A DNA stretch of 56,635 nt. It comes from a virus. Its lineage: Duplodnaviria > Caudoviricetes. Position numbers and translations under genes: made by a program. The notes beneath the pieces were generated by a model. The model made no database searches and had not been told where the DNA came from. It saw only the letters and a list, made by a program, of their open reading frames with translations. Shown here piece by piece: positions 5,914 through 54,206 of this stretch; position 1 is the stretch's first letter, and each line of letters begins with the position of its first letter. Location: positions 1 to 56,635 of IMG/VR virus record IMGVR_UViG_3300034356_000821; one strand, written 5' to 3'.

Positions 5914-6868
5914 CTATTCAACCACAATCGGTGAAGGGTCTTTCTCGTGTGTGCAGGCATTATGCAGCGGGTAAGGCTTCGTTGCCGATATCGTATACCG
6001 CCCCTTTTACTGACCCGTTAGTCATTAAAATCAACCGTTTTCAGGGTATCGAAGATATCGGCAACTGTTTTTGAATCAGTTTCTCATATGCGTGTAAGTC
6101 TTTGAATTCATTGAAGAATATGCATGCATGGTGTAATGCACAGCGTATGCATCACTCACCTGTGCAGCTATGTATGCCTATGCACTCATGCCTGTGCAGC
6201 GCAGCGCTATGCGGCCCGTGCGTGGGCCAGTAGGGGGTGGGGCGCTATATGTATACAACGAAGCCCACAGAACAGCTTTTTCAGACCTGTTAACCACCAC
6301 CGCCTAAAACACTCTATCCGTACACACTGTAGCCCACACAAGTGCTACACAGCCTCTACAATCGCTTAACGTCACAGGAGTGTTGCAGAGGCAACACCAC
6401 CCCCTACAGGACCAACAAAGCGTTTCAGACAACACAGCCTATGCTGCTACAGAAAACCAACCATGAATACATAGACTACTACTATCCACTTACACTATGT
6501 TGCAACAAAACAACATATGCAAATATATCGCTTGACAACATTTTACGTGTCGATATAACATAGGGGTATTGGGGCTTGGGGCTATGTAGACTATGTAGTG
6601 ATGCAGAGAGCATAGATGACATAGGGTACATAAATGTTCTTGCTCTATGTTGACAAACGATTATAGACCATCATCAACCCCTAAACACAGACTATGAAGT
6701 CTATAAAGCCGCTAACGCAATATCGACCATGAAGATAACAACTATTGATTGTTTATTGTTTTTCTTTTATTTGTTGTTTGCTTTGTTGTTGTTTAGCGAT
6801 ATACTCTCTCATCACTAGCCTACACATCTATAGATAGGCAGCTATGAAGACCTATATAGTAGAAGCAT
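5914..6868. other. ~950-bp non-coding region between the divergent arms; candidate true genome end or replication origin
   Basis: No credible ORF; short CTATG and CCTGTGCAGC repeats; T-rich tract at 6745-6795. Confidence 0.5.
6532..6559 (+). promoter_or_regulatory. Possible rightward promoter TTGACA-N16-TATAAC
   Basis: Near-consensus hexamers upstream of the late arm. Confidence 0.45.
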
Positions 6869-7123
6869 ATGAATATTTTGTTAAGTAGAGAAGCGGTAGA
6901 ATCTAAAGGGATGTTAAATAGTCCCCCTTATTCTGTTGCATCAATTGTGTTTAAAGCGATTCATCGTGACAACTTAGACAATACACATATACCGCATAGT
7001 GATGTATATTACGTCAGAGCCGCTTTAGAGAAGCATACGGGCTATTATTTCCCTTTAGATGTTGTAGAAGATGCGATGCACGAAGAAGGCTGGCGTGACC
7101 GTAAAGGTAAAGGACGATATTGA
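6869..7123 (+). CDS. Hypothetical protein
   Basis: 84 aa; first ORF of the plus arm. Confidence 0.7.
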   Translation: MNILLSREAVESKGMLNSPPYSVASIVFKAIHRDNLDNTHIPHSDVYYVRAALEKHTGYYFPLDVVEDAMHEEGWRDRKGKGRY

Positions 7124-7124
7124 T

Positions 7125-7379
7125 ATGGCAATCAAAAGAGGCAGTGAAGAGTTTAGCGGCTACAATAAGCCGAAGGCAACACCCGATCATCCGACAAAGA
7201 GCCATGCTGTGCTGGCTAAGGATGGAGCAACTGTGAAGTTGATCAGGTTTGGACAGAAGGGTGTTGAAGGAAGTCCCGATGGTAGTAAGCGTAACGAGGC
7301 TTTTAAAGCCCGTCATGCCTCTAACATTGCAAAGGGCAAGATGTCGGCTGCATACTGGGCTAACAAAACTAAGTGGTGA
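7125..7379 (+). CDS. Conserved small basic viral protein (KLIRFG...FKARH...AYWA..KW family)
   Basis: Recognisable motifs; AAGGA RBS. Confidence 0.8.
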   Translation: MAIKRGSEEFSGYNKPKATPDHPTKSHAVLAKDGATVKLIRFGQKGVEGSPDGSKRNEAFKARHASNIAKGKMSAAYWANKTKW

Positions 7380-7404
7380 ACAAGCTGTAAAAGTGCTATA
7401 ACAT

Positions 7405-7605
7405 ATGTACGTTGCTCAATATATCATCTGCATTGTTCAAGCGTGTATGATGTTTGAGTATGAGCATTACGTAATGTATAAAGACCTACAGCGCTGTCAA
7501 GCTACAGAGGCTGTGAAGGCTCAGGAGTTAATGGCATTGTTGAAAGACAAGCCTGTTAGTGCTGTGGCGTTTCGTTGTGTAAACAAAAGCGACAGTAGTG
7601 TTTGA
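7405..7605 (+). CDS. Small Cys-containing protein
   Basis: 66 aa; four Cys; hydrophobic N-terminus. Confidence 0.6.
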   Translation: MYVAQYIICIVQACMMFEYEHYVMYKDLQRCQATEAVKAQELMALLKDKPVSAVAFRCVNKSDSSV

Positions 7606-7637
7606 GGCATAGCCTCTATTTTTGTTAAAGGAAAAAC

Positions 7638-7979
7638 ATGGCTATGGATAACACAGCAGCTAAGGTTGCTAAATTGCGTGAAATGGCAAAGGACAAGAAC
7701 CTGCCACAGGACGTGCGTAACACCTATCTTGACGAAGCTGTGAAGCTGGAAGAGAAGGCGGCTATGAAGTCTGGTGTGAGGATGGCTAAGGGTGGTATGC
7801 CAATGGTTGAGAAGGCTGGCGTTAAAGTTCCAGCGTTTGCTGCTGACGGTGTTGGTAAGATGGCTAAGGGTGGCGCTGTTGTCGCCAAGGCTCCAACTAA
7901 AGACCTGCCAATGCGCGGTAGCCGTACAGCCACCAACATGGCGAAGGGTGGCTCTGCTATGAAGAAGGCTAAGAAGTAA
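7638..7979 (+). CDS. Basic protein with three MAKGG motifs
   Basis: MAKGG at 7782, 7860 and 7938; AAGGA RBS. Confidence 0.85.
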   Translation: MAMDNTAAKVAKLREMAKDKNLPQDVRNTYLDEAVKLEEKAAMKSGVRMAKGGMPMVEKAGVKVPAFAADGVGKMAKGGAVVAKAPTKDLPMRGSRTATNMAKGGSAMKKAKK

Positions 7980-7980
7980 G

Positions 7981-8418
7981 ATGGCTAAGAACAAGAACAT
8001 CGACGACGACACCCGCGCTCGTGCTCGGAAGTTTGTTGAAGAAAATAATAAAGGTGTTGACAGCGAAGGCTACGATTCACGAGAGTATCGGTCCGATCCT
8101 TATTCAGCAATGACTAAGAAGCAGCGTGATGCTCGTTTTGGCTATCCAGACGACTTCCCCCCTGCTGTTGTTTCAAAAGCTTTTGACGATGCCACTAAGA
8201 GTGTTGCTAAAGACAAACCTCGTGTTGTCAGCAAGAAAGAGTTGGAAGCGTCTGGTCTTAGCTTGCGTGACTTCCTCAACAAAGAGCGCGGCCTCACACG
8301 CCGTGAAGACAAACCTGACAGCAAAGTTGAAGCGGCTAAGAAGCAGTTGAAACTCAACAAAGGTGGCATGGCTAATTGTGGTGCATCTGTACCTGCTGCA
8401 CAGAAAGCTAAGAAGTAA
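7981..8418 (+). CDS. Charged protein with C-terminal LNKGG motif
   Basis: 145 aa; tightly packed; LNKGG at 8353. Confidence 0.8.
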   Translation: MAKNKNIDDDTRARARKFVEENNKGVDSEGYDSREYRSDPYSAMTKKQRDARFGYPDDFPPAVVSKAFDDATKSVAKDKPRVVSKKELEASGLSLRDFLNKERGLTRREDKPDSKVEAAKKQLKLNKGGMANCGASVPAAQKAKK

Positions 8419-8419
8419 T

Positions 8420-8602
8420 ATGGCTACCAAGTCTAAAGTGAACGCTGCTAACAACTACACCAAGCCTGAGTTGCGTAAGAAGATTGTGTCGCAAGTTAAG
8501 TCTGCTGCAACACAGGGCACTGGCGCTGGTGAATGGTCGGCTCGTAAGGCTCAGCTTGTTGCTAAGAAGTATAAGGCCGCTGGCGGTGGCTACAAAGACT
8601 GA
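8420..8602 (+). CDS. DUF5872-like protein, N-terminal half
   Basis: YTKPELR...WSARKAQ...YKAAGGGY. Confidence 0.75.
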   Translation: MATKSKVNAANNYTKPELRKKIVSQVKSAATQGTGAGEWSARKAQLVAKKYKAAGGGYKD

Positions 8603-8603
8603 T

Positions 8604-8837
8604 ATGAAAGCTTCACAGAAATCTCTCAAAGACTGGACAGACCAAGAGTGGACAACTAAGTCTGGAAAGCGTTCCTCTGATACGGGGGAGCGCTATCTAC
8701 CCAAAGCTGCCATCAAGAGTTTGACATCAGCAGAGTATGCTGCCACCACCAAAGCTAAGCGTGAAGGTAAAGCTGAAGGTAAACAATTTGTTGCTCAACC
8801 AAAGAGCATTGCTAAGAAGACGGCTAAGTACCGTTAA
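8604..8837 (+). CDS. DUF5872-like protein, C-terminal half
   Basis: SLKDWTDQEWTTKSG...ERYLPKAA. Confidence 0.75.
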   Translation: MKASQKSLKDWTDQEWTTKSGKRSSDTGERYLPKAAIKSLTSAEYAATTKAKREGKAEGKQFVAQPKSIAKKTAKYR

Positions 8838-8847
8838 AGGAAACATC

Positions 8848-9012
8848 ATGGCTACAAAGAAAGCGTTTAAGCCCTGCGAAGGCTGTCCCACTCCTGCTAA
8901 ATGCAAGGCTGCTGGTAAGTGTATGGCTAAAGAAGGCAAGGGTGGTAAGCCTGTTGTCGCCATCATGATTGGTGTTGGTAAGCCAATGAAGGCTAAGAAG
9001 AAAGCTACATAA
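8848..9012 (+). CDS. Lys-rich mini-protein with CxxCx5Cx5C motif
   Basis: AAGGAAACATC-ATG start; four Cys. Confidence 0.75.
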   Translation: MATKKAFKPCEGCPTPAKCKAAGKCMAKEGKGGKPVVAIMIGVGKPMKAKKKAT

Positions 9013-9524
9013 TGGAACAAAAAGAAATTGATGAAACCCGTGCTAGATTTAGTCTGCAAGGGGGAGCTAATACATTCAAAGACTCTGGTGCTCAAGGCGC
9101 TGGTGGTGGTGGACGTGTTGGAGTATCTAAAGAACTAGACTCTGGTGGTCGAGTATCTGCTGGTGTTAGTGGTATGGCATCGAAGGTTAAGGTTGATACT
9201 CCTGAAGGTGAAAAGACATTTAAGCAAAGCAGGGTCACTGGTGTTGACGCTTCTTATTCCAAAAATGATACCACCTATGGTGTTTCAGCGTCTAGGCAAC
9301 CTATGATGGACGGTAAGATGGATAAGAAACTTAACTTGTCCATTACAAAGTCGTTTGCTAAAGGTGGTGCTGTCACTAAGAAGAAGCAAACCACCAAAGT
9401 TGCTAAAGTGATGGGAGAGTTCAAAGAAGGCTCTCTGCACAGCGGCAAAGGCGGCAAAGTTGTGAAGAGTCCTAAGCAGGCTATAGCAATTGCTTTGTCT
9501 GAAGCTAAGAAGCCTAAGAAGTAA
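9012..9524 (+). CDS. Two-domain protein: beta-strand-rich N-domain, FAKGG, then DUF6496-like domain
   Basis: C-terminal KVMGEFKEGSLHSG...KQAIAIALSEA. Confidence 0.8.
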   Translation: MEQKEIDETRARFSLQGGANTFKDSGAQGAGGGGRVGVSKELDSGGRVSAGVSGMASKVKVDTPEGEKTFKQSRVTGVDASYSKNDTTYGVSASRQPMMDGKMDKKLNLSITKSFAKGGAVTKKKQTTKVAKVMGEFKEGSLHSGKGGKVVKSPKQAIAIALSEAKKPKK

Positions 9525-9874
9525 TGAACAAAGAACCAAAGATTAGAAGCCTTGGTAAGGTGTTGACAGCTAACGTTGCCAACACTATCTATACCTGCCC
9601 ACCCAATTACATTGCTAAGATGGTGTTGTTGTTTATTTCCAACCACGCAGGTAATAACAAGACTGTTCAGGTTCAATGGACTGATGTTAGTGCCAGTGGA
9701 ACCTATCACATTGTTGGTGGATACGTCTTAGCATCTAATGCATATTTAAAGCTTGATGGTAGCTACCTTGTCCTCAATCCCGGTGACACTGTCCTTGTAA
9801 CACCCGAAACTGGTTCAACTATGGATGCCACAATCACCATTGAAGAATATTTTGAACCTACACAAACAACATAA
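9524..9874 (+). CDS. Small beta-rich virion-associated protein
   Basis: TIYTCP...LVLNPGD...IEE pattern. Confidence 0.7.
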   Translation: MNKEPKIRSLGKVLTANVANTIYTCPPNYIAKMVLLFISNHAGNNKTVQVQWTDVSASGTYHIVGGYVLASNAYLKLDGSYLVLNPGDTVLVTPETGSTMDATITIEEYFEPTQTT

Positions 9875-9876
9875 CA

Positions 9877-10251
9877 ATGTCTAAAAAAGAACTAACAGAA
9901 CAACAGAAACGATTCCTTGAGGTGTTGTTTGCTGAAGCCAATGGCAACATCAACCAAGCTATGAAGATGGCGGGGTTCTCTGAAGGCTATAGCCGCAGAC
10001 AACTCACCAACTCATTGAAGGAAGAAATCATTGAAGCTACACAGCTTTACATTGCTATGGCGGCTCCAAAGGCTGCGGTGGCTATGATCAATGCCATTGA
10101 CGATCCTACAGAGCTTGGCCTCAAAGAGAAGATGTCAGCCGCCAAAGACTTGCTTGACCGTGCTGGATTGGTGAAGACCGAGAAGGTGCAAGTAGAGAGC
10201 AACACAGGCGGTGTCATGATATTGCCTGCTAAGGAACGCGAAGAAGAATGA
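9877..10251 (+). CDS. Terminase small subunit (putative)
   Basis: LTEQQKRFL...AMKMAG HTH-like N-terminus; AAKDLLDRAG; position before TerL. Confidence 0.75.
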   Translation: MSKKELTEQQKRFLEVLFAEANGNINQAMKMAGFSEGYSRRQLTNSLKEEIIEATQLYIAMAAPKAAVAMINAIDDPTELGLKEKMSAAKDLLDRAGLVKTEKVQVESNTGGVMILPAKEREEE

Positions 10252-10727
10252 CAACAGATGTTGTTACAACAGACTATGATTTTGGTCTAGGTGTCTTCAT
10301 ACTGCCACAGCCCAAAGATGCTAAAGAGTATGTTAAGATACCACGATTGGGAAGAACTATACCTTTTGGTTATGTAGTTGATGAAGCCGATGATGGCTGG
10401 CTTGTTCCTGTAGCTTTAGAGATAGAGGCGCTGGAGAAAGCTAAGAAGCATCTGAAGCAATACAGCTTGAGGCAGGTATCGGCTTGGCTCACTACTGTGA
10501 CTGGTAGAGAAATAAGTCATGTTGGTTTAATGAAGAGGATTAAGAGTGAACAGTCCCAAAGACGTAAGTCCTCTACTTATCGAGAGCTTGCCGACAGGTA
10601 CGAAAAAGCCCTTAAGAAAGCGCAAGAGTACGAAAAAAGAACAGGCACCGGACAAGACAGCTTCTTCGGTAGTGATCGATTCGTCCAACTTAGCGCCACC
10701 TTCCCCGACAGAAGCGCCGATAGCTGA
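10248..10727 (+). CDS. DNA-binding protein (PFGY recombinase-like/HTH domain)
   Basis: RTIPFGY...YSLRQVSAWL...ISHVGL. Confidence 0.7.
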   Translation: MTTDVVTTDYDFGLGVFILPQPKDAKEYVKIPRLGRTIPFGYVVDEADDGWLVPVALEIEALEKAKKHLKQYSLRQVSAWLTTVTGREISHVGLMKRIKSEQSQRRKSSTYRELADRYEKALKKAQEYEKRTGTGQDSFFGSDRFVQLSATFPDRSADS

Positions 10728-12132
10728 ACCTGTTGAGTATGAGAACATCATATTCAAACCCAACCCCGGTCCTCAGACATCCTTCCTAGCTGCTCCAGAG
10801 CGTGAAGTGTTGTATGGTGGTGCAGCAGGTGGTGGTAAGAGCTATGCCATTCTTGCTGACCCTCTGCGCTACATGGCTCATCCTCAATTTTCTGGTTTGA
10901 TTCTTCGACACACCACAGAAGAACTACGTGAACTCATTTGGAAATCGCAAGAGTTGTATCCAAAGATATATCCCGGCATCAAGTGGAGTGAGCGTAAGAT
11001 GCAATGGCAGCACCCAAGTGGTGGCAAGCTGTGGATGTCCTACCTTGACCGTGACGAAGATGTTATGCGTTATCAGGGTTTGTCGTTCTCATACATCGCT
11101 TGGGACGAGTTGACACAGTGGCCTACACCGTTTGCCTACAACTACATGCGTTCTCGTCTGCGTACAGCAGCACCTGATCTGCCTGTGTTCATGAGAGCTA
11201 CCACCAACCCCGGTGGTCCCGGCCATCAATGGGTCAGGAAGATGTTTATTGTCCCTTCACCGCCCGGTAAGAGCTTCTATGCTACCGATATTGAGACAGG
11301 ACAGACGCTAATCTATCCTAAAGGACACAGCAAAGAAGGCTTGCCTCTGTTCAAACGCAAGTTTATATCGGCTAGGTTGGCAGACAATCCCTATTTGGCT
11401 GAGTCTGGTGACTATGAAACCATGTTGTTGTCTCTACCAGAGCACCAACGTAAGCAATTGCTTGAGGGAAACTGGGATGTTGCTGAAGGTGCAGCGTTTT
11501 CGGAGTTCAATAGGGCTATTCACGTAGTAGACCCGTTCACTATTCCATCAAGTTGGCCCCGTTTTAGGTCTGCTGACTACGGATATGGTAGCTATAGCGC
11601 TGTATTGTGGTTTGCTGTAGCACCAGATGACAGCGTGGTGGTCTATAGAGAGCTTTATGTCAGCAAAGTGCTGGCAGAAGACCTTGCTATGATGATATTG
11701 AACGCAGAAGACGGTGAAAAAATACGTTATGGTGTGTTGGATAGCTCATGTTGGCACAAACGTGGTGACACTGGACCCTCTATTGCTGAAAGAATGATCA
11801 TGAAGGGGTGTAGATGGCGACCCGCTGATCGTTCTGCTGGTAGTAGGGTGGCTGGTAAGAACGAAATACACCGCCGTCTACAGGTTGATCAATATACTGA
11901 AGAGCCTCGCATGGTGTTCTTCAATACATGTACACAAATCATTGCAGACTTACCAACTTTACCAATTGATAAGACAAACAACGAAGACATTAACACCAAA
12001 GTAAGCAATGATCACACATATGATGCGTTGCGTTATGGTGTAATGAGCCGTCCACGTAGTGGATTGTTTGATTTTGATCCTGCTTCACAATCATCGGGAA
12101 TGAAGATAGCAGACCCTGTGTTTGGATATTGA
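10546..12132 (+). CDS. Terminase large subunit
   Basis: Walker A GGAAGGGKS, Walker B WDE, ATTNPGG, RNase H-like DYG and DHTYDALRY; GTG start with GAGGA RBS. Confidence 0.95.
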   Translation: MNSPKDVSPLLIESLPTGTKKPLRKRKSTKKEQAPDKTASSVVIDSSNLAPPSPTEAPIAEPVEYENIIFKPNPGPQTSFLAAPEREVLYGGAAGGGKSYAILADPLRYMAHPQFSGLILRHTTEELRELIWKSQELYPKIYPGIKWSERKMQWQHPSGGKLWMSYLDRDEDVMRYQGLSFSYIAWDELTQWPTPFAYNYMRSRLRTAAPDLPVFMRATTNPGGPGHQWVRKMFIVPSPPGKSFYATDIETGQTLIYPKGHSKEGLPLFKRKFISARLADNPYLAESGDYETMLLSLPEHQRKQLLEGNWDVAEGAAFSEFNRAIHVVDPFTIPSSWPRFRSADYGYGSYSAVLWFAVAPDDSVVVYRELYVSKVLAEDLAMMILNAEDGEKIRYGVLDSSCWHKRGDTGPSIAERMIMKGCRWRPADRSAGSRVAGKNEIHRRLQVDQYTEEPRMVFFNTCTQIIADLPTLPIDKTNNEDINTKVSNDHTYDALRYGVMSRPRSGLFDFDPASQSSGMKIADPVFGY

Positions 12133-14274: not shown

Positions 14275-14486
14275 TGATGGATAAGCCGTTTCTGCCAAAG
14301 CTTAAAGGTATGTTGAACAGTCCTCATTTGTGGGAAGCCTTTGTTGAGAAGCTTGATTATGATATTGAGCAACACCAACGCAAGCTGGAACAAACGACTG
14401 AGATGTCTGACGTGTTTAAAGCACAAGGTGCAATAGTTGCACTACGTCAGCTAAAGTATTTGAAGGAAGAAATCAATGCTAAATGA
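14274..14486 (+). CDS. Small portal-adjacent protein
   Basis: FKAQGAIVALRQL motif; overlapping starts and stops. Confidence 0.75.
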   Translation: MMDKPFLPKLKGMLNSPHLWEAFVEKLDYDIEQHQRKLEQTTEMSDVFKAQGAIVALRQLKYLKEEINAK

Positions 14487-15873
14487 AATGTATAAACTGT
14501 TTGCCGAGGGCGGTGTCATGCAAGAGGGTGGCACAGTCGATCCAGTTTCTGGTAACGATGTACCTCCCGGTGCTATGGCAGAAGAAGTTAGGGACGACAT
14601 TGACGCTAAACTTAGCGAAGGTGAGTTTGTCATTCCAGCCGATGTGGTGAGATACATTGGTTTGGAAAAGCTGATGATGATGCGTGACAAAGCTAAGGCT
14701 GGTCTTAAGCGTATGAACGATATTGGTCAGATGGGTAATGCTGAAGAAGTTCCTGATGCTGAAGCCCTGCATAGCGGTGGAGATGAAATGGATGATGAAT
14801 CTTTCTCGTCAGAGATTGATTCCATTATGGGTGAGGATGGGGGTCAAGAATATGCAGCAGGCGGTGATGTACGTAAGTATGCGCCGGGTGGTTATATTGG
14901 TGGCACTGCAAATCAAGAACTTTATAAAGATGCACCAATCCGTGGCTTTGAAATGGTAGAGATGGTGAATAAGGATGGTCAAGTCATTTACATCCCGTTC
15001 ATTAATGGCAGACCTCAGTTATCTATCCCTCAAGGATATACAGTTAAGTCGTCTGATATAACAACTACCACACCAACTACTCCTGCAACTGGTACAGGCA
15101 CAACCACTCCACAACCTACTGATGGTGGCGGCGCTGATGCTGGTGCTCCCGCTGCACCATCGTCACCGGGCTTTACTATTGGAGAAGACGGGGTTGCTAC
15201 TGCAAATACAACAAGCACCACTATTGGTTCTGTACTAGGTGCAGTTGTTGGTATGGTTACAGGATTATCTCCTGCCATGACATCACAGATTGGTAAGTCA
15301 GCGGTCAACCAATCAAACATTGCAAACACCCAAGCTGCGTTGTCTTTCAACACTGCTGTTGCTGATAACATGGCAATGGACAATTCACCAGCCGCTACCG
15401 CTGGTCCTACTGGTACAGGTGCGGCAGCAGCCTCTGCTGGTTCCGCTGCTGCCGCTGCTGCTACCGCTGTTGGTCATTCACCCGAAGCAGTTGCTGCTGC
15501 TGCACAGGCTGCTGCTACTGCTACAGTTGGTGGCGCTGGTCCCGCTGCTGCTGCCGCTGCTGCTGCCGATGCCGCTAACGCTGTCGCTGCCGATGCAGCC
15601 GATGCTGAAGGTGGTGGTCTTGGTACTGGTATCGGTATAGGTAGTGGTGGTACTGCCGCTGCTGATGGTGTAGGTGCTGATGGTATGGGTGTCGGTGCTG
15701 GTGTAGGTGGTGTAGGTGGTGAATCAGGTGTCAGCGCCGCTGGTGAAGCTGCTGGTGGCGCACCGTCAGGTGGTGGTGCTGACGGTGATGGTACTTATGC
15801 CAAAGGCGGCTTTGTATCCAAGAAGAAAACTACAACACCTAAATCAACATCGCTAGTATCTCGTCGTAAGTAA
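14476..15873 (+). CDS. LSEGEFV-domain protein with five tag motifs and an Ala/Gly-rich tail; candidate maturation or cargo factor
   Basis: DDIDAKLSEGEFVIPADVVRYIG; FAEGG, MQEGG, YAAGG, YAPGG, YAKGG. Confidence 0.8.
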   Translation: MLNEMYKLFAEGGVMQEGGTVDPVSGNDVPPGAMAEEVRDDIDAKLSEGEFVIPADVVRYIGLEKLMMMRDKAKAGLKRMNDIGQMGNAEEVPDAEALHSGGDEMDDESFSSEIDSIMGEDGGQEYAAGGDVRKYAPGGYIGGTANQELYKDAPIRGFEMVEMVNKDGQVIYIPFINGRPQLSIPQGYTVKSSDITTTTPTTPATGTGTTTPQPTDGGGADAGAPAAPSSPGFTIGEDGVATANTTSTTIGSVLGAVVGMVTGLSPAMTSQIGKSAVNQSNIANTQAALSFNTAVADNMAMDNSPAATAGPTGTGAAAASAGSAAAAAATAVGHSPEAVAAAAQAAATATVGGAGPAAAAAAAADAANAVAADAADAEGGGLGTGIGIGSGGTAAADGVGADGMGVGAGVGGVGGESGVSAAGEAAGGAPSGGGADGDGTYAKGGFVSKKKTTTPKSTSLVSRRK

Positions 15874-28180: not shown

Positions 28181-30817
28181 ATGGCTGAAAACTTTACAGC
28201 AAAACAAAAAGAAATCGTAGCACGTAAGATGGGCTATGACGGTCCTATGCAGGGCTTTGATCAATTCCTTAATTCATCTCCGTCATTAGGCATGCGATAT
28301 TCATCCATCACTTCTAAGTTTGCTGAGCGCATGGCAAAGGGTGGTGTTGTAAAGAAGTTTAATGTTGGTGGCTCTGTCATGTCGCCTGAACAACTTCAAA
28401 GTATTAACGCATTTTTAGCAACCAATCCTTCCCCTCAAGAGTTGGCTGCTGCACAACAACAATATGGTGTGACTGAAGTAGATTTGGCCGCTGCTAGGCA
28501 GCTTAGCGATTCTAGTCAACTAGCTGCTAATCGTGCAGCCGTTCGTGCTGACATGGCTGTAACAGGTGAAGAGTTTCGTATTGCCAACCCCGGTGGTGAT
28601 GTGACAATTCAAGGCACACAACGACCTGCAATGTCTGCCATTCCACAGTCTGAAATTGATGCTGCACGGGCACGCCTGACACCAGAGCAGCAACAGTTTA
28701 TTGATTGGAAGATGAAACAGATTGATCCAATTCAGCAGGGAACAATTGGCGACCAGTTTGCCCGTAGTGGGGTCAACCCATATCTGGATGCAGCAGGAGC
28801 GCAGACACAGATTGACCGTGCCACAAGTCGTGAGGCGGCGTTTCAGCAGGCTGGTGTTACACCAGAAACTAACCTACGCCCGTGGACAACGGCATCAACT
28901 ACAACTCCAGCAGCCAACACAACAACAGCATCAAGAACAGTTGTTGGCGGTGGCAATACAACTACTACACCTTCTCCATTTGTGATTGGCGGTGGCAATC
29001 CAACACCTTCAACAACAGTTGGCCCCGGCCCTATAACACCTTCACAGGTTGGTAATACTCCCGGCTTGGGTGCAGGTGGTATCGGTGTTAACGTTGGCAC
29101 CACAGGCACTACAGGTACAACAGGCACAACAGGCACCACAGGCACCACAGGCACCACAGGCACCACAGGTACAACACCCACCACAGTCACTGCGCCCGAT
29201 GGACCAGTTATGGGTGCTACACCAACCTACACAGCAGCACAAACTGCCACTACTGGTTTGGGAGCACAGGCTACTACTATTGCTCCCATTACTACAGCCA
29301 CTGCTGCTGCTCCTGTTGAAGCGGCAGGTGTCACTGCTCCTGCTCCAATTGTTGCACCAACTGTCACTGCTGCACAATCTGCTCCCGGTGTTAGTCAAGC
29401 GGTGTCGGGTGTAACTGCTGAGCAAGGTACGTTGTCACAACAAGCGCAGGTAACAGCGGCTCAACAAGACCCACGTACAACTGCTGTTTCTACTCTCACT
29501 GCTGCACAGGGTGAAGCTGCTCAGGTTGCTGCTCCTGCTGTTCGTACAGCGCAGGCTGGTGAGATGGTGTCTGGTTCAGCCGTTGACATGGGTAGGGTTG
29601 ATACAGAACTTGCAAAGACACAGGCTGCTCAGGGTGTTGTCACTGAAGAGATGACAGTGCAGGGTCAGTTGAACAAACTCACTAAAGACTTTGACGCTGG
29701 CAATCCACCACCTTGGGCTGCTGCGTCCATGAGGGCGGCTACAGCACAGCTTGCTGCCCGTGGCCTTGGTGCTAGTAGCCTAGCTGGTCAAGCCATCATT
29801 CAAGCCACGCTAGAGGCTGCTACACCCATTGCTGCTGCTGACGCTAAAGTGTTTGAGACAATGGGGTTGCAGAACTTGTCCAACCGTCAGCAAATTGCTG
29901 TGCTTGTTGGTCAACAACGTGCTCAGTTTCTTAGTCAAGAGTTTGATCAAAACTTTCAGTCTCGTGTTATCAATGCTGCAAAGATTAGTGACATTGCTAA
30001 CAAGAACTTTGATGCTACAGTTACTATTGCTTTGGAGAACGCTAGGCTTGCCAACACAATGAACCTTGCCAATCTTTCGTCAAAGAACGCATTGATCTTG
30101 GAGGAGGCTGCTGCCATGTCTCGCTTGGAGACACAGAACCTGAACAACCGTCAACAGGCTGCTGTTCAGAATGCTCAGAACTTCTTACAGATTGATATGA
30201 AGAACTTGGAGAATCGTCAACAGACATCAATCTTCAAGGCACAGGCCATTGTTAATTCGTTAGTGAGTGATGCTGGTTTTGAGAATGCTACACGAGCAAC
30301 CAATGCCAGCAATAAACTAGAAGCTGATAAAATCTCTGCAACATTGGCACTCACGGCTCAACAGTTTTCAGCGTCTGAGAAGAACAAGCTTGCTGTTGCC
30401 AACATGGATGCAGCCAATGAGCTTATTAAATTTAATGCTCAAGAAGCTAATGACAGAGCAGACTTCAATAATAAAATGTCTGCGGAGATTAACGTAGCTA
30501 ATGCTAGAATATTAGCTGAAGTGTCTACAGCCAACACCGCTGCTGTCAACGCAGCCAATGCTCTTAATGCTAAGAACGCCACAGACTTGACAGCAGCACA
30601 GTATGCACAGCAGAGTCAGACCTATCGTGACTTGCTTGAGATGTCTTGGAAGACTGGTGAAAGTGGTAAAGATCGTATTGTTAATTTGGCAATTGCTTCT
30701 ATCGCAAGAGATGTTCAGAATATTAAAAGTGATAGTGAAAACAGTTCGGCTTGGGGTAAGTTATTCATTGAAGGTGTAAAGAACTGGGACACCCTGAAAA
30801 ACATCATTAGTGGATAA
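28181..30817 (+). CDS. Internal virion / ejection protein
   Basis: MAKGG and FNVGG near the N-terminus; Thr/Pro linker; Asn/Gln/Ala-rich helical repeats. Confidence 0.8.
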   Translation: MAENFTAKQKEIVARKMGYDGPMQGFDQFLNSSPSLGMRYSSITSKFAERMAKGGVVKKFNVGGSVMSPEQLQSINAFLATNPSPQELAAAQQQYGVTEVDLAAARQLSDSSQLAANRAAVRADMAVTGEEFRIANPGGDVTIQGTQRPAMSAIPQSEIDAARARLTPEQQQFIDWKMKQIDPIQQGTIGDQFARSGVNPYLDAAGAQTQIDRATSREAAFQQAGVTPETNLRPWTTASTTTPAANTTTASRTVVGGGNTTTTPSPFVIGGGNPTPSTTVGPGPITPSQVGNTPGLGAGGIGVNVGTTGTTGTTGTTGTTGTTGTTGTTGTTPTTVTAPDGPVMGATPTYTAAQTATTGLGAQATTIAPITTATAAAPVEAAGVTAPAPIVAPTVTAAQSAPGVSQAVSGVTAEQGTLSQQAQVTAAQQDPRTTAVSTLTAAQGEAAQVAAPAVRTAQAGEMVSGSAVDMGRVDTELAKTQAAQGVVTEEMTVQGQLNKLTKDFDAGNPPPWAAASMRAATAQLAARGLGASSLAGQAIIQATLEAATPIAAADAKVFETMGLQNLSNRQQIAVLVGQQRAQFLSQEFDQNFQSRVINAAKISDIANKNFDATVTIALENARLANTMNLANLSSKNALILEEAAAMSRLETQNLNNRQQAAVQNAQNFLQIDMKNLENRQQTSIFKAQAIVNSLVSDAGFENATRATNASNKLEADKISATLALTAQQFSASEKNKLAVANMDAANELIKFNAQEANDRADFNNKMSAEINVANARILAEVSTANTAAVNAANALNAKNATDLTAAQYAQQSQTYRDLLEMSWKTGESGKDRIVNLAIASIARDVQNIKSDSENSSAWGKLFIEGVKNWDTLKNIISG
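29096..29176 (+). repeat. 9-nt tandem repeat x9 encoding (Gly-Thr-Thr)9
   Basis: GGCACCACA-type units counted directly. Confidence 0.9.
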
Positions 30818-32918: not shown

Positions 32919-35900
32919 ATGGCGTTTGGTATTAACGACAAAGAAGTTTCTACAGGCTTTGGGGCCAATGATAAAGTTGTGAGTGGTGGTTTTGGTGCAA
33001 ACGATGCTGTTGTTTCTAAGCCAACACCACAGTCTGAAGTAGACCTGACTAAGCCTGCCTTTGCTGCACCACGTCAACGTGCTACAGAGTTAAAGAAGGC
33101 TCAAGCTGTTGCCATCTCAGGTCGAGATGAAAAGAATGAAGGTCTTACTTGGAACGACCTCACAACCAATCCTAGCCTTCAAGACATTCAGAAACAGTTT
33201 CTGGAGATTCGTACAGGCAAGAAAGCTGAAGGTATTAGCGGCGTAGAGTTGTCAAATCAATTCATGTCTAGTGCTCGTGCTGATGAATGGAACACCTTCA
33301 GTAACATTGCATATTTGAATCAACTTCGTAACTCTCCGTTGCCTGACAAAGAGAAGTTGGCATTGGGTAAGCTTGTGTTTGAACGAACAAAGAGTGCATT
33401 GGAAGAAGGTGGTCAACCCGGTGCTCGTCCATATGTTGATGCAGTGACATCAGCCTTCACAGACTTGTCCAACTATGTTGGTCTTGGTGTTGGTGCTGGT
33501 TTGAAGAAGGGTGTTGCTAAAGAAGTAACCAAAGCTGCCACTCGCGCAGCATTGGGTGAGGTGGCTGAGACAGGTGTCAAAGCTAAGCTTGCTCAAGCTA
33601 TGACCGTTACACCCCTGAAGGCTGGTCTTGGTGTTGTAGGCACCGAAGCTGTCATTGGTGGTGGTCAAGCTGCTGTCGAACAGAAGGCGCAGGTTGCTAC
33701 ATCAAAGGTATTGGCTGAACAACGTCCCGATCTTGGTGTTGCTCCTAAAGAGTTTGACGACACTGCTGTTGCTGTTGCTGCATTGTTCTCTGCTGCCTTC
33801 GGTGGTGTTGAGGCCGTTGGTATTATGAAAGCTAAAGGCGGTAAGTCTGGTGCTGAACAACTCAATGATGTTCTCAAAGACAAGATTAAAACTTCAACAG
33901 ACCCTAACGCACCACCCACAAAGGTTGAACGTGTACTGACCGATCCTGTTGCACAAAATATGGACAAGGTTGTTGAAGAGTTCATGAATATTCAAGGTCG
34001 TCAGGTTTTGAATGAGGTCAATCCAGCAACAGCATTAACTGATGCAAAGATTCAGAAAGACTTGTCTGCTCGTGCTGTACGTGTAGCGTTGCACGTCATT
34101 GAACAAGACCCCACATTCCGTCTGCGTCCTAACCAGAAGACAAGCACAGCCATTGCTGAAGTGTTCTCTCAACTGGATACCATTGACGATGCGTTGCTTG
34201 AACAGGCCATTCGCAAGGAAGGGTTGACTCCTGATCAATTCGCTGCTGCTAACAAGCTGACAGTTACAGAGGCTGCTCAGGTGATGCAGCAATACTCTGC
34301 TGCTTCAAAGGTGTTGAAGCGCATGTCAGAGATTGATCCAGAATTCAAGAAGCAAGTTGATGCTTTGTTTGAAAAGCCTGATGAATATGTATCAGCACTT
34401 GGTCGCTTGGGTCAGGGTATTCAGACACTTGAGCGTGAATCAAAGGCTTGGATTGTTTCAGGCATTGGCACCACTGTCCGTAACGTCATTGGCACATCTA
34501 TTGGTCTGACATACAACTCTGCTGCTTCATTGATTGAAGGCGCTTTGTACACTGTCGGTAGAACACTGGATGGTGCTGCCAGCGGTAAGCGTATTGAAAC
34601 TGCAAAGAACAGTTTGGGCGACACCATGCGTGATGCATTCGGTGTGTATGGCTACATGGCTAAGGGTGGTTTGTCTACAGAGGTCACTGACACTTTGTTG
34701 CAACACAACCCCGCCATTCGTAACAACATATTGAGCGCAACACAGGAAAGTTCCACTAAGGAAATCTCTAAAGCTGCACAGGTCTTCAACAGCTTGAACG
34801 TAGCACAGGATGCTTTCTTCCGTAAAGCCATATTTAACGCTTCGGTTGAGAAGCATATGCGCCGTGCTGGTCTTGATATGTATGAGGTCATTGCTGAAGG
34901 TAAGACAATTCCCGCATCGGTCTTGAAAGAAGCTGCTGATGAAACGTTGAAGGCTACGTTCTCCTACACACCAAAGGCACAGAAGAAGGGTATTCAAACC
35001 TTTGAGGCTGGTGCTGAAGCTGCTGGTAACTTGTTCGTTAAAGCTGCTGAGTTCCCCGGTGGTAGCTTGCTTGCTACATTCCCACGCTTCATGTCGAACG
35101 CCATTGCTTTCCAATATCGATACAGCGTGTTCGGTGCTATATCGGGTGCTGAAGACTTGGCTCAGGGTGCATTAATGAAGGCTGCTGGTTCTTCTGGTGG
35201 TGAAGCTCTCATCCGTAAAGGACAACAGAACATTGCCAAGGGTGTTGTTGGTACTGCTGCATTGGCTGCTGCCTATGACTACCGCATGAACAACCAAGAC
35301 ACTGAATGGTACAACATGAAGAACGACGATGGTTCTACTGTTGACACTCGTGCCATCTTCCCATTGGGTCCAACACTGGCTGTTGCTGACTTCATGGCTA
35401 AGCGTAAACTTGGTCTTGAACCAAAGACTGCCGAGGCATTGGAAGCCGTTGTTGGTATGAAGATGCCTGCTGGCACACAGAACCAATTCCTTGATCAAGT
35501 GTTTGCTGCGTTCTCTTCTGAGAAAGAAGCTGATAAGTTGGAAGTGGCTGTTGGTAAAGTTCTTGGTGACTTCACTGCACGTTTTGCTCAACCGTTTGTG
35601 TTTAAGAGCGCTTACGAATTCTTAGATTTGTTCCGTGAGGAAGGCGCTATTCAGCGTGACCCTAATGTGTTGACTGCTGAAGGTGGTGGTGGTCGCTTGG
35701 TTGAAGCTGCTGTCAATCGTGTGCAGTCTAAGTTGCCTGTGCTGAAAGAAGATTTGCCTGAAGCAATCCCTCGTTTGCGTGAAGGACCAGTATATAAAGA
35801 AGGTGAATTCTTTTATAGCTTGGTTGGTGTTAGAGAAACTCCCAATAAGACTCCTGCTGAGAAAGAGATTGTTCGTCTTGGCATTGACCCTTTCAAACTG

Positions 35901-38153
35901 TATGGCCCTTCATCTGGTGACAGAATGTATGATCGTGCCTTTGTTGAGAACGCCAACCCTATGGTGGTTGCTGCCATTGATAGGACAATGGCTAACAACA
36001 GATACAAGGCTTTGTCACCCACTGAACAGAAGTTGGCATTGACCAATGTTGTTCGTGACGTTACAGGTATTGCTCGTGACAAGACAGACGGTAAGTTCAT
36101 GTCTGAAGACCTGACTCGTGTTAAGAAGATGCGCTTTGACAAACTGTCTGCTGATCAACGCAAGGTTATTAACGAACGTTATGCCAAAGACAACAAAGGT
36201 GTAACTCTCGAAGAAGCTAAAGACTACCGCGCTGTCGATAAGTATGAAGCTATGTTGGGTAACTTAGCCTTTGCCAAAGGTGGTCTTGCTGCCAAGATTG
36301 TAGGTAAGAAGGTTGCTGGTGAAGCTGTTGATTCTGTGACAAGCAAGCTTAAAAGCCTGACACCAACACCAACGCCTGCTGCTGACAACGCAGCAATCGA
36401 TGCCATCATCAACAAAGAACTTGGTGCTCCATCACCCGCCATCGATCAAACAGCTAACATGTTGATGGGTAAGAAGCCTGTGCTTCCTAAAACCACAGCA
36501 AAACAAACGCCTTCGCTTCCTGAAGAGCCAGCAACACCTGCACCAACCACACCAGAAGCGCCTGTGTTGAGCCAAACAGATGATGCCCTGCCTACCCTAC
36601 CTGCACAGACAATGGAGGCTCCTACGCTCTCTAAAGCCTTTGCTGATGAAGACTATGTCAAGGGTGAAGAGGCTATGCTTGAGTCGTACACACCTGCTCA
36701 GCTTAAGAGTTGGAAGATAGCCAACCCTGAAGACTACGAAAACACTCTTCATAGCTTTACTGGTCAAGCTAAAGGACTGAAATATTCTGAAATGCCACCA
36801 CAGCCTTTTGCTAAGAAGACTGATGAGGCTGCTGAGTCTTTGGTTGATGAAGTTGAATATGATATGGATGGTAATCCTGTTAGTGTTGGTGGTGTTGCTG
36901 TTAAGAAAGCTACACCAGTTGCTGATGAGTATGGTGTTGACCTTAAGTACTTGTCGGGTGATGCCAACTCTGTAGTTAAGAAAACCAGTGTTGCTCAACG
37001 TAACGCTGCTGTGTCTGCCATCAAAGAGACACGTGAAGACAACTTCTTCAAGCTGCGTAACAATGATAAGTTTGCTTCAGTAGATGATGATGTGTTGGGT
37101 GTGGTGTTGGGTGACTATCGCTACTCACGTGGTGCTGAACTCAACCCTAAAGACCCTGACATGCTTGCTGACGCTGTAAAGATGGCTGGTCAATATCAGA
37201 AACGTCTTGATGTTTTGCGTGAGAAGTATAAAGATGTACCACCTGTGAAGCTGTTCCACGGTCAAGGTACAACCTCTGCCATTGAACCAATTAAGAAGTC
37301 AGGCTTCACGGACCCGTCTAAGCGTGATGAGTTCTTCCATTCTGAAATGATGGTGGGTGCTCCATCGTTTACCAAAGACTTGAACCTTGGCTTTCGAGGT
37401 ACGCCATTTGGTGGAACAAGACCAGAGAACTATGTTGTCACAGAGATTCCTTATGCTGATTATGTGTTCAACAAAATCAATATGTCACCTGAGAATTATG
37501 ACAAGAAAGATATGAACACCATTCTTCGTGCCGTCACTGGCGCACCCGGTGTTGTTCGTCCTGTTGGCTTACCTCGTGCTGGCTTCTTAGAGACTGAAGA
37601 CATGATGCTGGAGGCTGAGAAGCTTCGCGTCAAAGGTAGAGATGCTAAGTTGCGTAGTGGTGAAAAGGATGTTGCTCAGGTGCTGGACACTGGTGGTAAA
37701 GGTCTGAGTCGAGCAACGATGAAGGGTGAAGAAGAAGTTGTGTCAGAGTATATGAAGCTTGCTCGTACCACTCCAGACCCTAAAGAGAAGATGAAGCTGG
37801 CATACATGTCCTACACTGGCATCAAAGACTTGATGAACAATTATCTGGATATGGCTACAGCAACGTCTACGAAGTCTGGTCTTGGTCAACAATATCAAGC
37901 TGCCATTAACAACTTTGCAGACTACTCAGGTATTCAGCGACAGATGCGTGAAGTCGCTGACATCTTGGATGCTGGTGGAGCTAAGCAGAAAGCACAGAAC
38001 CTGTATGAACTTACAGACAAGTTGAAGAAGTTTCAACAGTCTGAACCTGCAATCTCCACAGCGGTTGATGAAAGCAAACGAATTAAACCACTGGACGAGG
38101 TGAGAAAGTTTGTACCAAAGCTGGCAAAGGGTGGTCTAGCAAGTCGTCGGTAA
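32919..38153 (+). CDS. Large ejection protein (1744 aa) with C-terminal ADP-ribosyltransferase-like module
   Basis: Last gene of the virion arm; FGxND x3 at the N-terminus; LFHG...SFT...ETE; three AKGG motifs. Confidence 0.8.
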   Translation: MAFGINDKEVSTGFGANDKVVSGGFGANDAVVSKPTPQSEVDLTKPAFAAPRQRATELKKAQAVAISGRDEKNEGLTWNDLTTNPSLQDIQKQFLEIRTGKKAEGISGVELSNQFMSSARADEWNTFSNIAYLNQLRNSPLPDKEKLALGKLVFERTKSALEEGGQPGARPYVDAVTSAFTDLSNYVGLGVGAGLKKGVAKEVTKAATRAALGEVAETGVKAKLAQAMTVTPLKAGLGVVGTEAVIGGGQAAVEQKAQVATSKVLAEQRPDLGVAPKEFDDTAVAVAALFSAAFGGVEAVGIMKAKGGKSGAEQLNDVLKDKIKTSTDPNAPPTKVERVLTDPVAQNMDKVVEEFMNIQGRQVLNEVNPATALTDAKIQKDLSARAVRVALHVIEQDPTFRLRPNQKTSTAIAEVFSQLDTIDDALLEQAIRKEGLTPDQFAAANKLTVTEAAQVMQQYSAASKVLKRMSEIDPEFKKQVDALFEKPDEYVSALGRLGQGIQTLERESKAWIVSGIGTTVRNVIGTSIGLTYNSAASLIEGALYTVGRTLDGAASGKRIETAKNSLGDTMRDAFGVYGYMAKGGLSTEVTDTLLQHNPAIRNNILSATQESSTKEISKAAQVFNSLNVAQDAFFRKAIFNASVEKHMRRAGLDMYEVIAEGKTIPASVLKEAADETLKATFSYTPKAQKKGIQTFEAGAEAAGNLFVKAAEFPGGSLLATFPRFMSNAIAFQYRYSVFGAISGAEDLAQGALMKAAGSSGGEALIRKGQQNIAKGVVGTAALAAAYDYRMNNQDTEWYNMKNDDGSTVDTRAIFPLGPTLAVADFMAKRKLGLEPKTAEALEAVVGMKMPAGTQNQFLDQVFAAFSSEKEADKLEVAVGKVLGDFTARFAQPFVFKSAYEFLDLFREEGAIQRDPNVLTAEGGGGRLVEAAVNRVQSKLPVLKEDLPEAIPRLREGPVYKEGEFFYSLVGVRETPNKTPAEKEIVRLGIDPFKLYGPSSGDRMYDRAFVENANPMVVAAIDRTMANNRYKALSPTEQKLALTNVVRDVTGIARDKTDGKFMSEDLTRVKKMRFDKLSADQRKVINERYAKDNKGVTLEEAKDYRAVDKYEAMLGNLAFAKGGLAAKIVGKKVAGEAVDSVTSKLKSLTPTPTPAADNAAIDAIINKELGAPSPAIDQTANMLMGKKPVLPKTTAKQTPSLPEEPATPAPTTPEAPVLSQTDDALPTLPAQTMEAPTLSKAFADEDYVKGEEAMLESYTPAQLKSWKIANPEDYENTLHSFTGQAKGLKYSEMPPQPFAKKTDEAAESLVDEVEYDMDGNPVSVGGVAVKKATPVADEYGVDLKYLSGDANSVVKKTSVAQRNAAVSAIKETREDNFFKLRNNDKFASVDDDVLGVVLGDYRYSRGAELNPKDPDMLADAVKMAGQYQKRLDVLREKYKDVPPVKLFHGQGTTSAIEPIKKSGFTDPSKRDEFFHSEMMVGAPSFTKDLNLGFRGTPFGGTRPENYVVTEIPYADYVFNKINMSPENYDKKDMNTILRAVTGAPGVVRPVGLPRAGFLETEDMMLEAEKLRVKGRDAKLRSGEKDVAQVLDTGGKGLSRATMKGEEEVVSEYMKLARTTPDPKEKMKLAYMSYTGIKDLMNNYLDMATATSTKSGLGQQYQAAINNFADYSGIQRQMREVADILDAGGAKQKAQNLYELTDKLKKFQQSEPAISTAVDESKRIKPLDEVRKFVPKLAKGGLASRR

Positions 38154-52775: not shown

Positions 52776-52921
52776 AGTTTCATTGCCTCCATAGTTAGTC
52801 CGATGTTACCAATGGCATAGCCAACAAAGGCTAAGCCAAGTCCTGTGTTGCCTTTAAGCAACAGATCAATTGCAATGACGGTGTACACAACACCTATAGT
52901 TGCTATAAGCCAAGCGCTCAT
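52772..52921 (-). CDS. Small two-TM membrane protein
   Basis: Read manually; ATGA overlaps. Confidence 0.65.
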   Translation of the reverse strand: MSAWLIATIGVVYTVIAIDLLLKGNTGLGLAFVGYAIGNIGLTMEAMKL

Positions 52922-54006: not shown

Positions 54007-54206
54007 TTAGTTTCCTCTTTAGGTTTCTTAGGCAATGGTGCCCAATGTGTCCAATACTTATCGTCACTACGCAACTCACCATACACAGCAACACCATGCA
54101 CACTCAGTAGCTGCACCTTCGCAGACCTTGGGCATGTTGCAATGGGTTGCCAATAGTATTCTGTATCGACAACGGCTGTGCCATCTCTGGTTAGTCTAAC
54201 TGTCAT
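54003..54206 (-). CDS. DUF551-like small protein
   Basis: WQPIATCP...THWAPLP. Confidence 0.75.
   Translation of the reverse strand: MTVRLTRDGTAVVDTEYYWQPIATCPRSAKVQLLSVHGVAVYGELRSDDKYWTHWAPLPKKPKEETK

Follow-up and report, generated by a model that had tools for sequence, protein, structure and literature searches.

What is the task of a 170-residue late phage protein in which a β-sheet reminiscent of an outer-membrane barrel wall, made with no signal peptide, ends on a phenylalanine that is also the first residue of a short tag, F-A-K-G-G? The question arises at the open reading frame (ORF) 9012–9524 of IMG/VR record IMGVR_UViG_3300034356_000821, whose 56,635 bases, analysed here in full and called the window, form a complete linear virus genome (CheckV 100%). 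The original prediction, made from the letters alone, proposed a virion-delivered outer-membrane barrel with a terminal Phe exposed by processing at the tag. We consider it probable on balance that ORF 9012–9524 encodes a two-module late protein serving as packaged, envelope-acting cargo of an HMO-2011-type-like podophage, where packaging and targeting are what we infer from gene context and fusion partners.

The protein may be pictured as beads on a string, in which module 1 (residues 9–115) and DUF6496 are joined by a Phi-A-x-G-G tag and a basic stretch. Judged by its relatives, the ORF is a real gene, because 726 proteins match it at E <= 0.001 among the 1507 candidates of a word-indexed search, and 29 representatives match residues 1–115 alone at the same threshold in a full HMMER pass over 1.84 billion representatives. 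Three opposite-strand ORFs (9275–9709, 9285–9539 and 9092–9238) were treated as shadows of this conserved plus-strand frame. Pfam recognizes DUF6496 at residues 124–167 (E 2.5e-10, 41 bits against a gathering cut-off of 24) and nothing in residues 1–123; a scan of PHROGs gives a weak match on the last 19 residues only, and no structural PHROG for the β-module. The N-terminus is hydrophilic, with a best 12-residue Kyte–Doolittle mean of 0.13 within the first 45 residues, and a 12-residue hydropathy of 1.6 is reached by only two of 80 module-bearing proteins, so the family lacks a signal peptide. The frame of 170 residues with no signal peptide, and the run of F115, AKGG and a DUF6496-like domain, now above its cut-off, are therefore present as the original prediction described them.

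The β-module is defined most sharply at its C-terminal edge. In an alignment of 33 module sequences (A1), used both for conservation and for the model of residues 1–115, G34, R35, D79 and Y82 are invariant and G37, G51, G54, G77 and F115 nearly so, F115 being kept in 32 of the 33. A domain profile applied to 76 module proteins finds 23 that end exactly at F/Y and 51 that run on as F-A-[KDNAEQ]-G-G, most of the latter being 67–96% identical to the window protein and all together representing about eight independent lineages; the other two are a 58-residue fragment and a truncated variant. Four further large proteins run on as F-A-[DSE]-G-G, and no other continuation occurs in any of these 76 and four proteins, leaving out the fragment and the truncated variant. 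The check proposed with the original prediction, whether homologues end at the Phe, thus has an affirmative answer in the 23 stand-alone homologues that stop exactly there, and the comparison supports the Phe as the natural C-terminal edge of the module.

AlphaFold2 models residues 1–115 (33 sequences; mean predicted local distance difference test score (pLDDT) 86.7, predicted template modelling score 0.67) as six up-down antiparallel strands, comprising residues 12–24, 27–41, 46–63, 66–84, 87–97 and 103–113, and all six strand-like stretches picked out in the original prediction fall inside them. The full-length model (52 rows) gives the same sheet and renders DUF6496 as two helices of pLDDT 55–67. 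Between them the tag region is coil, and pLDDT drops from 88 to 55 across it, which places the tag in a flexible junction between two independent units. Both termini and two short turns lie at one end of the sheet, and long polar hairpins at the other. With the faces assigned by sequence parity and an assumed bulge at residues 76–77, not from coordinates, face A (25 positions in the lower half of the sheet) is 82% apolar, 10% Gly and 6% charged at the family level, and face B (29 positions) is 9% apolar, 20% Gly, 27% Ser/Thr and 27% charged and holds the invariant Arg and Asp; conservation is higher on both faces than in the upper hairpins. So assigned, the faces make the lower half strictly amphipathic, and features of this kind are typical of outer-membrane proteins and equally expected of a sheet packed on one side. 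A three-copy prediction of the module with A1 returned an ipSAE of 0.00 in two runs, made without controls, and speaks neither for nor against self-association.

No known family covers the β-module: it has no Pfam, PHROG or PDB family match, and a PDB sequence profile search with it gave nothing below E 0.5. Its nearest ESM Atlas clusters are unnamed viral ones, with Attacin_C (0.91, 151 shared features) and Phage_OMP (0.89, carried by 14% of the cluster's members) as leads only; the Phage_OMP identity was dropped after PF24653 (cut-off 27 bits) matched nothing at E <= 10 in the six-frame window. A search with A1 for longer fused forms among proteins of 484–2000 residues scored none, which is weak evidence, and a locus scan with the homologue P0128 yielded no confirmed relative. 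Among deposited phages, tblastn of the whole ORF brought up two records, both through the DUF6496 part only, and megablast of 6800–10300 found no match. We regard an unclassified, mobile, six-stranded β-module with a fixed aromatic end as a solid new fact.

The tag proves to be a feature of more than this one protein. Its strict form, [FYMLIVW]AKGG, occurs nine times in the 83 window proteins (17,778 residues), whereas 1000 within-protein shuffles give 0.20 on average and never more than 3, and the nine are confined to five late plus-strand proteins (Table 1), with none in an early-strand protein. The codons differ among the nine tags, so selection acts on the protein. An origin as a DNA-level recombination joint or an internal ribosome-binding site was rejected for the same variation in codons and because in distant relatives the K is replaced by D, N, S or E; a KGG stress-protein repeat of the YciG type was likewise set aside, the tag-bearing ORFs having no such Pfam match at E <= 0.1. 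In relatives the β-module is followed by DUF6496, a short basic tail, a module reading 'LYANINAK' or a Cys-Gly-Ala-Ser tail, and these downstream modules are also found behind helical modules of unrelated type, each junction having one tag, as in proteins of three modules with two tags or four modules with three. Where the module stands alone and ends at the Phe, the tag lies upstream of it, after a short leader, and the same leader and tag carry other cargos in loci L011–L019, the leader-plus-tag gene abutting the portal gene in seven such loci. Looser tag forms are present in gp68 and gp58 of the cultured phage CRP-2.

Compared across these proteins, the tag is a general junction motif between interchangeable, recombining modules, and its place upstream of the module in many homologues argues against the dedicated Phe-exposing device of the original prediction. 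A passive linker would hardly account for a motif conserved at each junction, and the tag would most simply be a site recognized in trans. That a strongly enriched Phi-A-x-G-G motif is common to the probable head-internal proteins of this phage group is, in our judgement, a second solid fact. The literature search returned nothing on the module family or the motif, the tag spellings leading only to unrelated 'KGG motif' papers, and no paper that mentions DUF6496. We note a 76-residue variant in loci L015–L019 (for example L017:6001–6231), still directly 5' of the portal gene, which retains the leader, the tag and a remnant of the last strand ending in Ser, not Phe, and is without the rest of the β-module.

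The third line of evidence comes from the large homologues, in which the module is embedded in proteins of 276 to 1311 residues. In five of nine (P0128, P0150, P0151, P0153 and P0145) a transglycosylase lies directly beside the module, identified by phrog_4067 except in P0145, where Pfam SLT matches; it is downstream, after a tag, in four and upstream in one. This recurrent module–transglycosylase fusion, as read from the domain matches, is again a solid new fact. A further large homologue, P0146, carries LPD23, a polyvalent-protein domain, and contigs of the L003 type place a stand-alone homologue between TerL and the portal gene. In another protein of the polyvalent type (P0152, 1311 residues) the module sits between two copies of a repeat of about 100 residues, at a junction reading F-A-S-G-G. 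In SU10, gp20 is described as a virion-borne transglycosylase among that phage's ejection proteins, and for polyvalent proteins packaging and delivery along with the DNA have been proposed (PMC5512222). On the strength of the transglycosylase fusions, the LPD23 homologue and a neighbouring ORF, 7071–7379, with a match to one segment of phrog_220 ('minor head protein and DNA pilot'), we take the module to be most probably cargo acting in the periplasm or at a membrane, for which the evidence is circumstantial but consistent.

The reading that we favour starts from the tag, which marks module junctions in this phage and its relatives and is present in the small basic proteins 5' of the terminase, in the post-portal protein and in the giant proteins of the structural block. 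Proteins that bear it would be loaded into the head and would exit with the DNA. The β-module may then act on the cell envelope, its sheet turned towards membrane or lipid, next to the domain that cuts peptidoglycan and is fused to it in the larger relatives. The tag, recognized in trans, could be either a processing site that separates the modules or a docking motif; cleavage there, a candidate processing event, we hold to be possible and rather doubtful.

Several results weigh against this packaged-cargo reading. Many of the 51 fused proteins, at 67–96% identity to the window protein, cannot be counted as independent. In 50,697 deposited phage records, tblastn with the ORF or with its L003 homologue did not bring up the module, so no cultured-phage proteome covers it. 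No protease was recognized among the window ORFs scanned, which did not include every small ORF, and among them the only peptidase is the M15 endolysin. The faces of the sheet depend on the parity assignment given above. Foldseek against PDB and BFVD returned nothing at E <= 0.001, and the best Z of an independent VIA pass over 48,161 chains was 8.0, a weak match for a tool in which a Z under 8 may mean merely a common arrangement. Finally, the status of the 878-residue and 1744-residue tag proteins as ejection proteins is suggested only by their size and position.

Among the alternatives, the one that survives best, unlikely as we think it, keeps the protein in the head and moves its work to the cytoplasm. 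The protein would be soluble cargo that condenses DNA in the capsid or acts early against host defence, in the way put forward for polyvalent-protein modules; its sheet would be an oligomerization or binding surface, and the tags would be uncut, conserved hinges or capsid-docking motifs. The lysine-rich proteins of the gene cluster with their basic tails, and the small basic units that DUF6496 and other modules represent, suit such a role, as does the homologue with LPD23, since polyvalent proteins are described as packaged and delivered with DNA (PMC5512222). Virion proteomics of RIO-1, from a related podophage class, report no processing and no protease (PMC4819975), and the scan of window ORFs for proteases agrees. 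Against these points, relatives that repeatedly join the module straight to a peptidoglycan transglycosylase indicate the periplasm and not the cytoplasm, six strands with a face 82% apolar call for a hydrophobic partner, and one tag per junction, not per protein, suits separators better than an address label.

The proposal with which the locus was first described, an outer-membrane β-barrel subunit delivered by the virion, fares less well. Here cleavage at the tag would free the C-terminal Phe as a β-signal, and copies of the module would form an outer-membrane conduit for DNA ejection. Much of what is described above fits. The strands are amphipathic, antiparallel and even in number, with both termini on the same side; Tyr/Phe residues lie near the end that holds the termini and short turns; the lower sheet has three to five apolar positions per strand; 23 stand-alone homologues end at an aromatic residue and the fused forms always put the tag directly after it; and the module adjoins a transglycosylase in large relatives. 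The fold searches lean the same way. The top PDB rows of Foldseek are gasdermin pores and Ail (probability 0.99, TM-score 0.38), and its BFVD rows include cyanophage (probability 0.99) and uncultured-phage proteins annotated as outer-membrane-protein-like β-barrels. Transmembrane β-barrels or β-pore formers make up 33 of the 50 listed VIA rows, counted from their titles, and the wall of a SusC-like barrel overlays 109 of the 115 residues at 3.1 A. In addition, OMP_b-brl (PF13505) gives sub-threshold matches in three of the 33 relatives (best E 0.0092), and PorP_SprF in one.

The details tell against it. A canonical β-signal has a terminal aromatic residue and hydrophobic residues at −3, −5, −7 and −9. 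In the module, position −1 is F in 32 of 33 sequences and Y in one, and positions −5, −7 and −9 are hydrophobic, but position −3 is K in 24 and R in eight, so the terminal Phe does not read as the canonical β-signal that had been suggested. A closed barrel takes eight or more strands, and each chain supplies six, fewer than in any single-chain outer-membrane barrel known to us; by themselves they cannot close a membrane barrel of known type, and strand 5 has only three apolar positions. No outer-membrane-protein hidden Markov model (HMM) exceeds its cut-off for the module, and OMP_b-brl gives no match at E <= 10 for the window module. Since barrel walls account for most of the long meander sheets in the PDB, any such sheet would be expected to resemble one; for this reason, and given the low Z, we take the likeness of the predicted model as that of an open, gently curved sheet to a barrel wall and not as homology. 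The tag, moreover, also stands upstream of the module and between unrelated helical modules, and no protease was found to cut it among the ORFs scanned. The outer-membrane-pore ejection proteins so far described in the sources at hand (T7 gp14, P22 gp7 and DEV gp73) are not β-barrels, a transmembrane α-helix being predicted for DEV gp73.

Insertion of the module into the outer membrane is accordingly improbable, as is the barrel subunit as a whole, and the fullest version, a first β-barrel-type ejection component that is stored in the head unfolded or chaperoned, is cut at Phi-A-x-G-G and forms an outer-membrane conduit or anchor in several copies beside a transglycosylase, is a shade less credible again. 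The amphipathic, signal-less meander, the Phe edge and the transglycosylase neighbour of the original prediction have held; with six strands, no outer-membrane-protein HMM match and no Z above 8.0, the barrel has not. The structure prediction asked for at the time likewise confirms a six-stranded meander, with weak fold matches and no known single-chain barrel. The observation is thus confirmed and extended, and its earlier interpretation partly supported.

It is very improbable that the protein is a non-virion late protein, for instance an assembly or packaging accessory that shares a linker motif with structural proteins by chance, for although its gene lies 5' of the terminase genes, where accessory genes are common, and the β-module has no structural PHROG match, the module also occurs inside proteins of 276 to 1311 residues with transglycosylase or polyvalent-protein domains, and the tag is common to the giant proteins of the structural block.

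The packaged-cargo reading also draws on the gene neighbourhood. ORF 9012–9524 is the last of the small lysine-rich ORFs that occupy 7071–9524 in a tight run, with stops and starts touching or overlapping; the stop of the upstream ORF overlaps its ATG (TAATG), and the same overlap joins its own stop to the next ORF. The run continues through a 116-residue ORF into TerS (9877–10251; Pfam Terminase_2, phrog_2538), followed by TerL, an SU10-type portal, the major head protein, an SU10-type adaptor, tail genes, an Rz-like spanin match and the M15 endolysin. A role as an exclusion factor, also raised in the original prediction, is unlikely for a signal-less gene in an operon that runs into TerS. 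At the end of the structural block, the 878-, 465- and 1744-residue proteins have no PHROG or Pfam family match. The opposite strand encodes an integrase, ThyX, ribonucleotide reductase, a primase-helicase and a polymerase-sized ORF.

Deposited relatives of the 1744-residue protein are found only in the roseophages CRP-2 and CRP-345 and in one spring metagenome phage. The gene order of CRP-2 matches that of the window, including a cluster of small basic genes 5' of the terminase, and CRP-2 is classed as HMO-2011-type (PMC6918029). The window is therefore read as a distant HMO-2011-type-like podophage, probably of a diderm host; pointers to the latter are the Rz-like spanin match, the Roseobacter host of the syntenic CRP-2 and a single genome match in a metagenome-assembled genome of Gammaproteobacteria. 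On the minus strand, a tyrosine integrase gene lies near an ADP-ribosylglycohydrolase gene with a 67-residue ORF between them (52918–55051), and these two, with ThyX and ribonucleotide reductase, agree with much of the gene content reported for HMO-2011-type phages.

Further observations concern the neighbours and the other tag proteins. CRP-2 gp68 (L029:2295–2609) is the counterpart of both ORF 7638–7979 and ORF 7981–8418; it begins with two CxxC motifs and has four looser tags (NKGG, YGG, HGG and NKGG), the last followed by a Cys-Gly-Ala-Ser tail like that of ORF 7981–8418, where the same basic tail follows the looser tag as follows the β-module in P0121 and P0127. The gp68 region is also the positional counterpart of ORF 8848–9012 (54 residues), which has four cysteines in knuckle-like spacing and a basic tail. 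The position of ORF 9524–9874 (116 residues) is kept in CRP-2 (gp66), and its sole PHROG match is weak (phrog_1276, E 4.7e-5). The longest TerL frame (10546–12132, with GTG at 10546) overlaps the 159-residue ORF 10248–10727 by 182 bases; the TerL family match starts at residue 64–66, so the true start is probably further downstream. In ORF 14476–15873, the N-terminal region carries two looser tags, F-A-E-G-G and Y-A-A-G-G, and the string 'GEFVIPADVV', also found at the C-terminus of the homologue P0137, and the C-terminal half is extremely Ala/Gly-rich and of low complexity. The 878-residue protein, which has no family match, contains a run of seven Gly-Thr-Thr repeats inside a long stretch rich in Thr, Ala and Pro, after which comes a helical-looking half rich in Ala, Asn and Gln.

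Table 1. Features of ORF 9012–9524, the junction tags and the upstream gene cluster, in window positions.
Feature	Position	Strand	Basis or remark
Whole ORF, 170 residues: β-module, junction tag, basic linker, DUF6496, basic tail	9012..9524	+	ATG start
Six-stranded antiparallel β-meander module, residues 9–115, ending at F115	9036..9356	+	AlphaFold2, alignment, domain HMM
Junction tag F-A-K-G-G, residues 115–119	9354..9368	+	F115 closes the module and opens the tag
DUF6496 (PF20106), residues 124–167, two low-confidence helices	9381..9512	+	Pfam, AlphaFold2
Tag M-A-K-G-G, first of three in ORF 7638–7979	7782..7796	+	
Tag M-A-K-G-G, second of three in ORF 7638–7979	7860..7874	+	
Tag M-A-K-G-G, third of three in ORF 7638–7979	7938..7952	+	Then short basic tail and stop
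Looser tag L-N-K-G-G in ORF 7981–8418	8353..8367	+	
Tag Y-A-K-G-G near the C-terminus of the 465-residue protein after the portal gene (14476–15873)	15796..15810	+	
Tag M-A-K-G-G, residue 51 of the 878-residue protein (28181–30817)	28331..28345	+	
Tag M-A-K-G-G, residue 580 of the 1744-residue protein (32919–38153)	34656..34670	+	
Tag F-A-K-G-G, residue 1118 of the 1744-residue protein	36270..36284	+	
Tag L-A-K-G-G, residue 1735 of the 1744-residue protein	38121..38135	+	Five-residue tail ending in two arginines, then stop
Cluster of six small basic ORFs upstream	7071..9012	+	Syntenic with CRP-2 gp68–gp71
The six cluster ORFs	7071–7379, 7638–7979, 7981–8418, 8420–8602, 8604–8837, 8848–9012	+	

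To our knowledge, how short-tailed phages bring their DNA through the outer membrane has been worked out in a few model phages only, and the pore proteins of these are helical. In this setting, a signal-less module with sharp bounds and the look of a barrel wall, recurring beside a peptidoglycan-cutting domain in large phage proteins, offers a concrete and cheaply testable hypothesis. With the Phi-A-x-G-G motif, cargo proteins of metagenomic phages can be sought out and the question of their processing raised. If the reading with cleavage and a barrel were true, the tag at the junctions would serve head cargo as a phage-wide maturation code in one of the most abundant groups of marine phages. 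Neither the module family nor the motif has a Pfam, PHROG or PDB entry.

Among known systems, the small barrels of the OmpX/Ail type (OMP_b-brl, PF13505) are closest in appearance, Ail being the PDB row of highest Foldseek probability. They share with the module an antiparallel amphipathic meander of even strand number, a terminal aromatic residue, termini and short turns at one end with long hairpins at the other, and a polar face rich in Gly, Ser and Thr with conserved Arg and Asp. They differ in having a signal peptide, eight or more strands and no K/R at −3, and the module has no HMM match above cut-off to them and only the low TM-score to Ail given above. Gasdermins and the stems of MACPF/CDC proteins also have long, Gly/Ser/Thr-rich amphipathic hairpins, which need oligomerization to form β-pores; unlike them, the module has no globular pre-pore domain, and its matches to gasdermins are of E 0.017 or worse, with a TM-score <= 0.25 and a root-mean-square deviation > 19 A. 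In the glycine-directed maturation cleavage sites of viral core proteins, of the adenovirus-protease type, a hydrophobic residue stands a few positions before the Gly-Gly that closes a short motif. The tag is similarly a Gly-Gly motif repeated in basic proteins that would travel with the genome, but its hydrophobic residue lies one position further from Gly-Gly than in that consensus, and no cysteine protease gene was recognized among the ORFs scanned.

In their architecture the module proteins come nearest to the polyvalent proteins (Iyer et al. 2017, PMC5512222), in which small interchangeable domains that can also be encoded as solo genes are strung together; likewise, the β-module and DUF6496 share one chain here and each is found in other combinations or alone. 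Polyvalent proteins are proposed there to be cut into units by an embedded metallopeptidase domain, unlike the module proteins here, in which no such domain was found; Pfam detects no LPD, MuF or MPTase domain in the window ORF, and LPD23 occurs only in P0146. The main text of that paper makes no mention of a linker, glycine, a β-barrel or the outer membrane.

In their link to a transglycosylase, the module proteins are most like the ejection proteins of podophages (T7 gp14–gp16, SU10 gp20–24 and DEV gp71–73), with which the module has no sequence or fold relation that we could find. T7 gp16 carries a lytic transglycosylase, and in the present family the corresponding link is made in the five large homologues, whose packaging would be the counterpart of the storage of T7, SU10 and DEV ejection proteins in the heads of these short-tailed phages, among which SU10 has a lytic transglycosylase in gp20.

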